Shown one piece after another: positions 2,137 to 45,021 of a DNA stretch of 64,000 bases. The stretch's first letter is position 1. The number at the start of each line of letters is the position of its first letter. Position numbers and translations under genes: made by a program. The DNA comes from Eledone cirrhosa (lineage: Eukaryota), in NCBI GenBank assembly GCA_964016885.1, contig OZ024741.1, positions 251,906,001-251,970,000 of the forward strand. Reading direction: 5' to 3'. The notes beneath the pieces are model-generated. The model was not told where the DNA came from, ran no database searches, and saw nothing but the letters and a program-made list of their open reading frames with translations.

Positions 2137-2342
2137 AACAAAGGAAATGTGGTAAGGAACCAGATGGACCATAATGCACCAAAGTACTCAATACTTAGGG
2201 TAGTAGGGTAGTAGAGTGGGTAATAGGAATGAGTAGGACCCCGACGGCTGAGCTCAAGCCGTTTCGACGGCTAATTCTGGACGTCCAGAATTAGCCGTCG
2301 AAATGGCTTGAGCTCAGCCGTCGGGGTCCTACTCATTCCTAT
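2137..2342. mobile_element. Fold-back element family A (Penelope-derived, HHR 3' half), between (TA)n tracts
   Basis: 60-bp arms 2223-2282/2283-2342 (1 mismatch, centre GGAC|GTCC); homologous to 32666-32868, 44731-44937 and to the termini of the PLE at 27696-29521. Confidence 0.85.
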
Positions 2343-2549
2343 ATATATATATATATATATATATATATTTGCATGTGTGTGTGTATGTTTGTGTGTTTAC
2401 TTTCTCTTCTTTTCTCTTTGCATTTAGTATTACATCAACAAAGGTCTTACTGTTCATTGTTTAGATATGCAAATATCCTTACTTAAAGAAAAAAATACAA
2501 GCTCTCCTCCAGCCCATGTCAACATGAAAATATGGATGTAAAACTCACA

Positions 2550-2700
2550 AAGATGATGATGACAATGATGACAATGATGACAATGATGATGATGACAATG
2601 ATGATGATGACAATGATGAGGATGATAATGATGATGATGATGATGATGATGATCATGATCATAATCATGATCATGAGGAGGTGGAGGATAATGATGATTA
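2550..2700. repeat. (GAT)n-rich microsatellite following an RTE/SINE-type tail
   Basis: GAT/GAC triplet run preceded by CCCATGTCAACATGAAAATATGGATGTAAAA. Confidence 0.85.
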
Positions 2701-3048
2701 ACAACTGTAAATGAGAGCTGTCAACTGCTCCAAAAGATGGTTGACAGGAAAGAAAGAAACTTACATTGTGTCAAATGTACTCCAAGAAGTGTGTTATTAG
2801 TTGAAGTAACAACTAAAATACAGCCCAACATCTATACCAGTAATATACTAAAAAGTTCTATAAAAGTAAACATCTGCATGGTTAAGGAGTTTCCTTCCCA
2901 AGCACATGCTTTTGGATTTAGTCCTTCACTATAATCTCAGACTGATCTATATAGAAAGGTCAATGAATGGACCTGTTATTTTTCTCTAAAAGCATTTTTT
3001 CCAATTCCACCCCGCCCGTCCCTTCAATCTTTCTAATTTCTCATTCTT

Positions 3049-3084
3049 TCTTCTGATGAAGGACTAGTATCCGAAACATTAAGG
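3049..3084 (+). ncRNA. Minimal type-I hammerhead motif (degenerate)
   Basis: TCTT-CTGATGA-A-GGACTAGTATCC-GAAAC-ATT-AAGG; same family as 12847-12882, 4288-4317 and the truncated copy near 21550. Confidence 0.65.
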
Positions 3085-3306
3085 TCCTCTTTCAGCTATT
3101 TCAAGCGTTAACCTAATATATTCCTCCTTCCATATACTGTACTGATTGTGTTGTTATTTCTGTTTACCTTTTACATACATATATATATATATAGATAATT
3201 TAATATATCAACTAACATAAGCGCACAGATGCACGCCCATGCCAGCAAATACACAGGTTATGTCATAGTACCTAGGTGGTTCAATGCAGGAGAATGCAGA
3301 ACAATA

Positions 3307-3451
3307 ATATAAAGGACGTAAAATAAGAAAATATTTTTTTAAAAAAATTAAAAAAAAAAAAAAATTTTTTTTTCTTACTAAGTAAGAAAAAAATTTTTTT
3401 TTTTTTTTAATTTTTTTAAAAAAATATTTTCTTATTTTACGTCCTTTATAT
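3307..3451. repeat. AT-rich palindrome abutting (TA)n
   Basis: ATAAAGGACGTAAAATAAG...CTTAC-TAA-GTAAG...CTTATTTTACGTCCTTTAT. Confidence 0.9.
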
Positions 3452-3522
3452 ATATATATATATATATATATATATATATATATATATATATATATATATA
3501 TATATCAATATATATATATATA

Positions 3523-3692
3523 CAAGTAAAATTCTGTTATAATGAATACCATTATAACGAATTTTTCATTATAACAACATTTTTTTTCATTCCCCGACCA
3601 CATGTTCGATATGTTAGGTCAACCTCGTTATAAAGAATTTTTCGTTACAACAAATTTTTTTTTATACCCTGTGAATTTTGTTATAATGGAAG
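3523..3692. mobile_element. Degenerate pogo/Tigger-like MITE
   Basis: Repeated GTTATAACGAA-type subterminal motifs and TIR-like ends after TA. Confidence 0.5.
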
Positions 3693-3849
3693 TGAGAGAG
3701 AGTGTGGTAAAGTCATATACAGAAAGGAAAAGAGGAAAATACAGAGAGACAGATAGATATATAGAGAGAGGTATTCTGACTGTTGTAGATTTTAATGATA
3801 TTTTAATGATATTGTATATTGGCGATTTGAAGTTGATTTATATCTCGCA

Positions 3850-3999
3850 AAACTTACATTTTTTTATAACAAACCTAAAACATTCTCAATGGGATGCAGA
3901 TTTAAAAAATGAAAACTGTTTTTCTCCAGGATGGACCATTTCAGAACCTTTGAAAGACATGCGCAGACACACACATACATTCTCATTTATAGTATAGAT
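3850..3999 (-). mobile_element. Helitron-like 5' end fragment
   Basis: Minus strand begins A|TCTATACTATAAATGAGAATGTATGTGTGTGTCTG. Confidence 0.5.
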
Positions 4000-42220: not shown

Positions 42221-42264
42221 AAAATATAAATATTAATAAAATAGATGTTCTTTTGATCAATTAC

Positions 42265-42317
42265 ATTTTATTATACATATTTCAGAGGTACAACAGTACG
42301 TCCTCATCAGACAAAAT
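42265..42317 (-). ncRNA. Minimal type-I hammerhead
   Basis: ATTTTGT-CTGATGA-GGACGTAC(TGTT)GTACCTCT-GAAA-TATGTA-TA-ATAAAAT; 7-bp stem I. Confidence 0.78.
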
Positions 42318-42778
42318 ATAATGATACATGACATACCCTGAGATGTTAAATGGTTAATATTTAATCAAGGTAGTCATATATTAATACTTATATTTTAATA
42401 TTAATAACTCCTTAAAATTTATTTTACTCATTGAGTGCTTCCAATCTACTGTAAAACTCATTCTTTGACATAATTATCGAATATTGTTTAAGAACTTAAT
42501 ATTTATATCAGTATATGTTTGTATATATATATATATATATGTATATATAAATATGTGTATATATATATATATATATGTGTGTGTGTGTATATATATGTGT
42601 ATATGTATATATATTTATATAAATATATGTATGTATATATGTAAATATATATATAAGTATATGTATGTATATATATATATCAGTATATGTATATATATAT
42701 ATATCAGTATATATATAGATATATAGATAGATAGATAGATATACACATACAAATAAGTAGAGAGAAAAGAAAACTCAC

Positions 42779-42799
42779 CTTATCTATGTCATCTTCCAT
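42779..42799 (-). CDS. Candidate short first coding exon (MEDDIDK)
   Basis: ATC-ATG-G context and consensus donor AAG|GTGAGT; no downstream exon identified. Confidence 0.3.
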
Positions 42800-42897
42800 G
42801 ATGTTGTTGATGCTATATACACATATATACACACACATACACACACCTCTCTCTCTCTCACTCTCTCTCTCTCTCTCTCTTTGTTATCACTGATGTA

Positions 42898-43030
42898 ACT
42901 ACTACTACTACTACTACTACTACTACTACTACTCTTACTACTACTACTGTTACTACTACTACTACTACTACTACTACTACTGCTACTACTACTACTACTA
43001 CTACTACTACTACTACTACTACTACTACTA
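42898..43030. repeat. (ACT)n microsatellite
   Basis: Direct observation. Confidence 0.97.
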
Positions 43031-43552
43031 TACCCACTTAACTACATGCTTCTACTGTTGATTTTTCCCCTCTTTCTGTCTGGACTAGTGTATGTGTGTG
43101 TATGTACACATGTGTCTGTGCATGTGTGTGTATGTACACATGTGTCTGTGCATGTGTGTGTATGTACACATGCGTCTGTGCATGTGTGTGTATGTGTACA
43201 TGTGTCTTTGGATATGTGTGTATGCATACATGTGTGTATGTACATATGTGTCTATGTATACATGTGTATGTGTGTATGTATACATGTGTGTATGTAGATA
43301 TGTGTCTATGTATACATGTGTATGTGCATATATGTGTATGTATACATGTGTCTATGGATATGTGTCTATGTATACATGTGTCTATGGATATATGTGTATG
43401 TAGACATGTGTGTATGGATACGTGTGTATACATATGTGTATGTAGATATGTGTCTATGTATACATGTGTATGTGCATATGTGTATTTGTGTCTATGTATA
43501 AATATGACTACATGTGTATACATGAGAGTATCTGTGTGTATGTGTTTGTCTA

Positions 43553-44297
43553 TACATGTGTGTATGTGTATGTGTGTCTGTCTATATATAAGTCTACATG
43601 TATGTCTGAACACATGCCTGTGTCACATGTATACATGTCTATGTATATATAGATGTATACGTGTATATGAATCAGCTGTATACAAATATATATATATATA
43701 TATACATGTGTGTATGTGTATGTGTGTCTGTCTATATATATGTCTACATGTATATCTGAACACATGCCTGTGTCACATGTATACATGTCTATGTATATAT
43801 AGATGTATACGTGTATATGAATCAACTGTATACAAATATATATATATATACATGTGTGTATGTGTATGTGTGTCTGTCTATATATAAGTCTACATGTATG
43901 TCTGAACACATGCCTGTGTCACATGTATACATGTCTATGTATATATAGATGTATACGTGTATATGAATCAGCTGTATACAAATATATATATATATATACA
44001 TGTGTGTATGTGTATGTGTGTCTGTCTATATATATGTCTACATGTATGTCTGAACACATGCCTGTGTCACATGTATACATGTCTATGTATATATAGATGT
44101 ATACGTGTATATGAATCAGCTGTATACAAATATATATATATATACATGTGTGTATGTGTATGTGTGTCTGTCTATATATAAGTCTACATGTATGTCTGAA
44201 CACATGCCTGTGTCACATGTATACATGTCTATGTATATATAGATGTATACGTGTATATGAATCAGCTGTATTATACAAATATATATATATATATATA
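43553..44297. repeat. ~148-bp tandem repeat, 5 units
   Basis: GAACACATGCCTGTGTCAC at ~43608, 43758, 43905, 44052, 44198. Confidence 0.92.
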
Positions 44298-44730
44298 CAC
44301 ATGTATGTTTGGGCATGTATACCGTTGTATACAAACGTTTGTGTGTATATATACATACACGTATGTGTCAGCTGTATACATGTGAGTCTATACAGTTCTA
44401 ATAAAATATACATGTATACATGTGTATAACTGTACATGTGGGTTTGTGTGTATCAGCTGTATACATGTGTATCAGCTTTGTGGGTATGTCTGTATATAGG
44501 TGTGTGTATATGTATGAACATGTATGTGAATGTATGTGTATGGATGTGACAGATGTCTGTAAATCAGCTGTAGTGAATACCCGTCTCCGTGTGTATGTAT
44601 ATGTATATATGTGTGTGTGTGTGTGTGTTTGTGCCTGTGTCTGTCTGTGAGTGTTTGGGTATACATATCTGCCTGCATGTGCTCGTGTGTATGTGTATAT
44701 ATATATATATATATATATATATATATATAT

Positions 44731-45021
44731 AACAAAGGAGGTGTGGTAAGGAACCAGATGGACCATAACGCACCAGAGTACTCAATACTTAGGGTAGTAG
44801 AGTGGGTAATAGGAAAATGTTCAAGACCCCGACGGCAGAGCTCAAGCCGTTTCGATGGCTATTTCTGGACACAAATAGTCCAGAAATAGCCGTCAAAATG
44901 TCTTGAGCTCTGCCGTTGGGGTCAAACATTTTCCTATATATATATATATATATATATATATGCGTCCAGAATTAGCCGTCGAAACGGCTTGAGCTCAGCC
45001 GTCGGGGTCTTACTTGTTCCT
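44731..45021. mobile_element. Family A fold-back plus separate half copy (44964-45021)
   Basis: Same ends as other copies; half copy starts at GTCCAG turn point. Confidence 0.88.

Follow-up and report, generated by a model that had tools for sequence, protein, structure and literature searches.

Short palindromic insertions of Eledone cirrhosa as probable products of twin priming at the 5' end of a Penelope-like element

The window analysed here is a stretch of 64,000 nucleotides from Eledone cirrhosa (assembly GCA_964016885.1, contig OZ024741.1, positions 251,906,001 to 251,970,000 of the forward strand). It holds three whole copies of a short hairpin, designated family A, which lies between runs of the dinucleotide TA. 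By sequence comparison, these hairpins are 5'-end products of a Penelope-like element (PLE) of the Hydra type and carry only the first 140 nt downstream of a position numbered +1. They probably arise afresh each time, by two primings on one element RNA, run-off at its likely capped start and head-to-head joining of the cDNA ends. The evidence consists of outer ends fixed at +61 and +140, a tail that corresponds to the 5' untranslated region (UTR), a sharp common edge of the arms, junctions that differ between copies, arms that match each other and a non-genomic G at -1.

On the minus strand, each window copy opens with a TA run and an inverted arm of some 60 nt; past a junction come these 60 nt again in direct orientation, then a tail of 75-85 nt and a second TA run. 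Positions are numbered from the A of AGTCC (+1); priming site 1 ends at +61, priming site 2 at +140 and the ATG lies at +232. Genome-wide pattern matches were taken over the 3.0-Gb assembly, with reversed patterns as controls. The breakpoint sample was built from the first 100 exact tail matches along one contig (C1), 30 tail-end matches and the copies found beside them. From the 180 copies parsed, 33 were dropped (the three window copies and 30 from loci selected by their open reading frame, ORF), leaving 147 direct arms, which include one copy of a divergent relative (family D) and one locus read from both tails. Paired-arm counts rest on the 97 tail-anchored hairpins within this sample, and inverted arms shorter than about 17 nt went unscored. 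The base at -1 at arm ends with longer spacers was counted by hand, as was the edge in two subfamily groups.

Source element of the hairpins

A pattern spanning the hairpin centre returned 4,837 exact hairpins against 0 for the reversed control, well above chance, and a 29-mer of the tail gave 28,415 exact matches (reversed control 0). The source element was reached by a protein search with the ORF end present in the window (28498-28881), which led to long open frames; 20 loci were fetched. One of these, L141, is a complete partial tandem made of a pseudo-long terminal repeat (pLTR), the tail, the ATG, a 722-aa frame, a 1.1-kb 3' UTR and again a pLTR, with a unit of 3,550 nt. The ATG of L141 lies at +232, downstream of both site 1 (+61) and site 2 (+140), and the tail is therefore 5' UTR. 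Upon extension of the tail-end pattern, 28 of 30 loci entered TA-rich repeats, one (L118) entered the ORF leader and one (L117) unrelated DNA. The outer ends are fixed in the breakpoint sample as well. In 121 of 147 cases the tail gives way to a TA run 5-8 nt past its last motif; of the inverted arms, 83 of 97 begin inside such a run. Among the long copies, tandem pLTRs are present in L141, L142, L146 and L158 and inverted 5' copies in L144, L149 and L157, with the tail on one end.

The atlas neighbours of the 722-aa L141 protein, at 0.96-0.99, bear HTH_animal, GIY-YIG, DUF8422 and RVT_1, and so do its homologues; direct Pfam and PDB sequence searches with the ORF gave zero matches. Judged by these neighbours and homologues, the element has a single ORF with a reverse transcriptase (RT) and, at the C terminus, a GIY-YIG endonuclease, as in endonuclease-bearing (EN+) PLEs. 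Motifs identified by eye in the translation (DKT, a CxCX5C linker, CxxC and CxH around E and N, and RWR for RWK) point to the Hydra clade as presented in section 11 of PMC8557442, an assignment made by motif. Family A also shares the insertion into TA repeats that characterizes this clade. An initial reading of the ORF as Neptune was dropped, the motifs fitting the Hydra clade. When contigs of two sequencing runs of one study were aligned with L141, depth rose about twenty-fold at +1 and fell after site 2; such depth does not equal copy number, may come from the assembly's own sample and was not counted as evidence.

Breakpoints, extra G and junctions

Direct-arm ends (n=147) fell within -10..+8 in 84 cases, downstream of +8 in 46 and upstream in 17, including 14 beyond -40. 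The edge is sharp: of the 101 direct arms reaching +8, 84 end by -10; the loss in the neighbouring intervals is 8 of 109 arms (+9..+27) and 2 of 17 (-11..-28). Inverted-arm ends lie within -10..+8 in 76 of 97 hairpins, and both arms do so in 56; the wider interval -39..+16, roughly stem II of the ribozyme fold described below, holds 69 direct-arm and 87 inverted-arm ends of these hairpins. Arms primed 79 nt apart share one stop position, and arms without a partner begin at the same edge (68 exact cases after a TA run). The edge lies at +1 and at about -4 and shifts with the subfamily, as the TCATTT group reaches -3 or beyond in 21 of 36 hairpins against 3 of 14 for the TAATTT group (p 0.03, hand count). 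Both positions (+1 in TTAGTC or TCAGTC, -4 in TCATTT) resemble the pyrimidine-A-pyrimidine-rich initiator consensus.

An extra G is found just upstream of this edge. In read-through matches, the native base at -1 is C or T in 6,189 and G in 4. A G-bearing hairpin pattern gave 1,168 strand matches genome-wide, some of them ambiguous. Longer spacers allow the base to be assigned to its arm. There are 164 such hairpins in which G or C stands beside +1 on both arms, and among the 50 of them listed, 80 of 100 ends carried G and 20 C; G stood on both arms in 33 of these hairpins, on one arm in 14 and on neither in 3 (p 1e-9). One-base spacers of the TATTT subfamily were C/G in 46 of the 50 listed of 118, the carrier arm being ambiguous from the spacer alone. 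Partnerless arms after (TA)n (n=68) had 23 G, 40 C and 5 A at -1, against a background of 10.4% G, 73% C and 17% A. Short arms carried G at this position in 16 of 76 cases, read-through arms in none of 63. The non-genomic G expected of a capped run-off is therefore seen in the genome-wide patterns and equivocal in the 76-arm sample and in family D. It resembles a copied RNA cap, by analogy with the extra G from the mRNA cap reported at full-length L1 5' ends (PMC11702581).

The 97 junctions comprise 42 with microhomology, 39 with insertions and 16 blunt joints, and 42 distinct junction strings were counted in 54. Several insertions repeat adjacent arm sequence; joining by polymerase theta yields insertions that copy nearby sequence. 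The subfamily word agrees between arms in 51 of 66 hairpins (shuffled mean 14.5), so a single template or a single source locus served each event. Seven of the 97 hairpins have a tailed arm that ends at +52..+62 and an inverted arm that covers most of +1..+58 (up to +19..-3). Such inversions, almost free of duplication and comparable to those of L1 twin priming, cannot be fold-back copies of a tailed cDNA; they fit the two adjacent internal RT starts with extension of both strands that were described in vitro (PMC11167929).

Some junctions are peculiar in other respects. Runs of 12-14 A or T, apparently due to slippage on the TTT just upstream of +1, occur at junctions in L015, L060 and L111 and in genome-wide hairpin matches. 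In one hairpin (L196:1450-1560), a TA run flanked by a G and a C makes up the spacer, a target-like repeat inserted between two cDNA ends. A subfamily variant carried by L005, L085, L208, L214, L217, L220 and the window copy at 44731 is absent from the 46 aligned read-through arms discussed next; it could mark a non-autonomous source.

Read-through copies may fold as a type I hammerhead ribozyme with a YUGANAA core, a long stem II and a predicted cut after +41. Across 46 aligned arms, taken from 57 distinct long arms, 92.7% of cells pair, against 29-57% when the alignment is slid; covariation in the predicted pairing of these 46 copies did not rise above shuffles. A U3-A8 pair is present in 35 of the 46 and no 3-8 pair in the other 11, and the core differs from the canonical CUGANGA; U3-A8 is able to replace C3-G8 in the hammerhead core. 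An Rfam scan of the window returned no hammerhead or other match. The 3' strand of the inner helix of stem II spans -3..+5; in two copies, the folding energy of this helix is -1.9 and -4.2 kcal/mol, and that of stem III -4.5 and -5.3. The predicted ribozyme cut site was rejected as the main turn point, since ends at +41..+45 number only 6 among the 147 direct arms and 1 among the 97 inverted arms. An abundant subfamily (L008, L062, L098, L125, L131, L157, L158) combines C3 with A8, has no 3-8 pair and is widely spread, and this spread suggests that ribozyme cleavage is dispensable.

The favoured mechanism would operate as follows. RNA polymerase II would start at +1 or -4, inside stem II. The element protein would cut a TA repeat and prime at +140 from one DNA end and at +61 from the other; both cDNAs, made on one RNA, would run to the cap, or one would halt early, and the ends would be trimmed and joined. 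The G at -1 would be the copied cap. The enzyme working from site 2 may displace the site-1 cDNA, leading to a hairpin, or halt at it, leading to an inversion without duplication. Long copies would come from read-through RNA, primed at the downstream (3') occurrence of these sites. Because of a start inside stem II, the 5' copy of the ribozyme would be devoid of the first half of its core and unable to cut in cis, so that short copies would span the cut site; what ties the hairpins to the ribozyme would thus be where the promoter lies and not a stall. A broader reading, which we consider plausible but rather less than an even bet, is that the inverted ends of PLEs are the outcome of fixed-site twin priming on one capped sense RNA. 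The start within the element's own ribozyme would disarm the 5' copy and the 3' priming sites would be lost when the 3' copy cleaves, with the result that most integrations would be tiny 5'-end hairpins recording the promoter at base resolution; these may in turn undergo transcription and form anew in every generation, as a palindromic family resembling short interspersed elements.

Several observations weigh against a capped start and twin priming. G (16) and C (17) are equally frequent at -1 in the 76 short arms, where many C's stem from the partner arm or from a subfamily with native C; once partner-explained bases are removed, only 10 G, 8 C and 7 A are left. C is also the commonest -1 base after (TA)n (40 of 68), yet below its background of 73%. 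In family D, where 691 exact hairpins turn at the homologous +1/+2 TTAGTT site, only about 4 of the 50 loci listed have G at -1, and the +1 of this family likewise falls inside a weak helix. A second fold-back family, B (7,392 exact matches), has ETS-, NRF1- and YY1-like motifs 60-130 nt upstream of its core; most of its copies read through this promoter-like region, and a minority end 0-30 nt before the YY1-like motif. One hairpin (L044) has arms from two subfamilies, and the predicted inner helix of family A coincides with the edge. All the enzymatic steps, the role of +1 and -4 as RNA starts and the cap are deduced from DNA.

The coincidence of edge and helix is the basis of an alternative that we consider unlikely, in which two primings also occur, with both enzymes stalling on a longer RNA at the stem II inner helix, or at a protein bound there, and the RT adding an untemplated C. 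The original prediction had likewise proposed that RT stalls at the ribozyme hairpin. The turns do cluster at the inner helix of the hammerhead-like fold, and those of family D, which shows no clear extra G, share this position, again in a small helix. The helix is nevertheless weak, its pairing does not covary beyond shuffles, and stem III and outer stem II, which are met first, are mostly passed. Few arms stop just upstream (2 of 17, as above), the edge moves between subfamilies with the base at -5, and the non-genomic G is unexplained by stalling. The same prediction had every hairpin turning in stem II, which is too strong: of the 97 hairpins, 69 direct-arm and 87 inverted-arm ends lie in the stem II interval, and both ends lie within -10..+8 in 56; the breakpoint histogram it called for displays no random scatter, with a sharp upstream edge and a downstream tail of ends.

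A template 5' end produced at +1 by a nuclease cut in the loop region of stem II, again with an untemplated C added by RT, is somewhat less probable still. It accounts equally well for the sharp edge and the partnerless arms, and the site adjoins the loop of the predicted fold. Both edge positions, however, fall on the A of an initiator-like motif. The cut predicted for the ribozyme itself (+41/+42) shows no strong peak among the direct arms. The one PLE promoter that has been mapped, that of D. virilis Penelope, is internal to the pLTR (PMC2377424). The mapped start of that element is position 371.

Snap-back of one cDNA, which the original prediction also invoked, or self-priming of an antisense template (PMC3846280), would have the hairpin copy its own arm, and is very improbable. 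Subfamily variants common to both arms would be explained, and some junctions are perfect palindromes. In 28 of 97 hairpins the inverted arm extends upstream of the tailed arm by 10 nt or more, and in 9 the tailed arm leads by that margin; the comparison is biased by the very short inverted arms left unscored, a bias that counts against twin priming too. In addition, the seven inversions described above have tailed arms that barely overlap their partners, partnerless single arms share the edge, and the 39 junction insertions fit end-joining. Non-nested arms thus largely refute snap-back as a general route, and some symmetric copies may have formed in this way.

It is scarcely credible that every copy goes back to a single ancestral palindrome, or to a few, moved as a miniature inverted-repeat transposable element (MITE), or to long palindromes later trimmed or mis-assembled to a common point: outer ends are fixed, flanks are TA and some junctions recur (up to 5 of 50 among the matches listed), but the varied junctions, shared template and seven duplication-poor inversions rule out a MITE, as they disfavour snap-back, the ends are asymmetric with a one-sided tail, and all the element sequence in the hairpins belongs to an RT-encoding element. 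The repeated independent formation that had been predicted is supported by the variety of junctions (42 types in 54), which extends to each subfamily and refutes a single ancestral palindrome, and by a divergence of 6.1% within copies against 12.5% between copies.

Copies in the window and related families

The three hairpins originally predicted, with the centres quoted for them, are present at 2137-2342 (copy 1, 206 bp), 32666-32868 (copy 2, 203 bp) and 44731-44936 (copy 3, 206 bp), each between (TA)n runs. Their proposed common left end, ACAAAGG, holds for two copies and is replaced by ACGAAGG at 32666. The tail of copy 1 (2137..2222, minus strand) is the 5' UTR from priming site 1 (+61) to priming site 2 (+140); in the full-length copies L141 and L147 the same sequence continues as far as the beginning of the ORF. 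Its direct arm (2223..2282, minus strand, +2 to +61) contains the 3' strand of stem II, GAAA, stem III, GUC and the 3' strand of stem I, and meets the inverted arm (2283..2342, plus strand, +2 to +61) at a blunt junction (2282/2283). Copy 2 is made of a direct arm (-3 to +61) with its tail (32666..32807, minus strand) and an inverted arm (32808..32868, plus strand, +1 to +61). Copy 3 belongs to a subfamily unlike that of copies 1 and 2; its direct arm, from +2, and tail (44731..44870, minus strand) are separated from the inverted arm (44876..44936, plus strand, -1 to +61) by what reads as a 5-nt junction insertion without strand (44871..44875). A separate single arm without tail, from +2 to site 1, is located inside the TA run beside copy 3 (44964..45023, plus strand) and begins, as had been noted, at the same G as the arms of full copies.

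The derivation of the hairpins from a PLE was correct, all their element sequence being a piece of the RT-encoding L141-type element. The parent assigned to them at 27140-29525 is instead a truncated inverted-plus-direct read-through copy that lacks the family tail and RT and is fused to another element. Its long inverted arm (29001..29522, plus strand) matches the 3' UTR of the long copies L144 and L147 at 92-93% identity; its direct arm (27696..29000, minus strand) comprises the ORF end, the 3' UTR and the ribozyme and ends at site 1. The C-terminal GIY-YIG-type region of the element ORF lies therein, in a 127-aa frame (28498..28881, minus strand). A type I hammerhead-like motif with a UUGANAA core occupies 29402..29522 (plus strand), with +1 probably at 29462 and a predicted cut after 29502; the C17 position is T in this inverted arm. 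The 7-bp inner helix pairs 29444-29450 with 29459-29465, so the coordinates originally given for it were off by one base; the mapping of the turn to its 3' strand was right because that strand spans -3..+5. What is joined at site 1 (27143..27690, minus strand) is not the family tail: it comes from the 3' end of another repeat, which is probably a further PLE. This putative PLE end holds a minimal hammerhead with a palindromic stem III near 27245-27270, and it joins the family A copy with a short duplicated segment.

Family B, represented in the window at 30586-31140 and 32901-33030 and elsewhere at L161-L190, is a second TA-targeting fold-back with a tail and a canonical CUGAAGA hammerhead. 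Family D is a divergent relative of family A with the same tail (L014:1990-2120, L099:560-680 and genome-wide). The arms of a fold-back at 29979-30268 hold a hammerhead core and end at GAAA, directly on a TA run; stem III would therefore be either provided by the target repeat or missing. Other fold-backs, mostly flanked by TA, were found at 8832-9072, 14812-15043, 18770-18886, 19523-19621, 22073-22205, 26461-26914, 31420-31767, 51786-52193 and 52637-53012, and the fold-back architecture looks general in this genome. An inverted repeat of 475 nt at 98% identity, with copies about 3 kb apart and internal 112-nt repeats, extends over 15358-19489.

Comparison with known systems

Inverted ends, tails, junction palindromes, two start sites and an internal promoter have all been published. 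The literature search found no paper tying PLE inverted junctions to the RNA start site or to a cap G. The formation of the inverted repeat and tail of PLEs, and the template strand used, are described as unresolved in PMC8557442 and PMC3846280. Family A supplies thousands of independent natural junctions that favour sense RNA primed twice, a mechanism that would explain the long-puzzling inverted ends. If general, it would allow PLE promoters to be mapped from DNA alone through their turn points, and by-products of retrotransposition would account for many of the short hairpins between TA runs that might be classed as MITEs. The abundance of 60-bp palindromes (at least 4,837 exact) may also be a source of double-stranded RNA or of fragile sites.

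Published EN+ PLE insertions (PMC3846280, PMC8557442) display the same head-to-head inverted 5' copy, one-sided tail, junction palindrome and (TA)n targets. Family A differs from them in its commonest product, which holds no more than the initial 61 and 140 nt of the inferred RNA, and in its thousands of copies, its sharp edge and its extra G, and in a tail of about 79 nt rather than 30-40. Junction palindromes were attributed in PMC3846280 to antisense self-priming, whereas the family A data favour a sense, capped template primed twice. Compared with the Hydra clade (PMC8557442), the element has the same C-terminal endonuclease, DKT, CxCX5C linker, CxxC, CxH, TA targets and pLTR hammerhead; its 3.55-kb unit (the clade being generally <3 kb), RWR in place of RWK and UUGANAA rather than CUGANGA core set it apart.

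Poseidon PAc of Anolis, studied in vitro (PMC11167929), likewise has two adjacent internal RT starts that bound a tail near the ORF start, with both strands extended and with uncleaved RNA used as template. It belongs to another clade, the available parts of that paper contain neither RNA start mapping nor hairpin products, and in family A, unlike PAc, both sites end in 2-3 bases matching the TA repeats. Twin priming of L1 (PMC11702581) involves the same two primings on one RNA, end-joining and an extra G at complete 5' ends; the second priming site of L1 is variable and its inversions have deletions or duplications of 1-10 bp, while in family A the sites are fixed and the same 60 nt are usually doubled. 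MITEs are equally short, non-coding, high-copy hairpins, but family A has neither symmetric ends, its tail standing on one side only, nor an inherited centre. Non-long-terminal-repeat retrozymes are also short, high-copy, ribozyme-derived sequences; family A hairpins have no complete ribozyme, since the first core half is missing, and are dispersed singly instead of in tandem.

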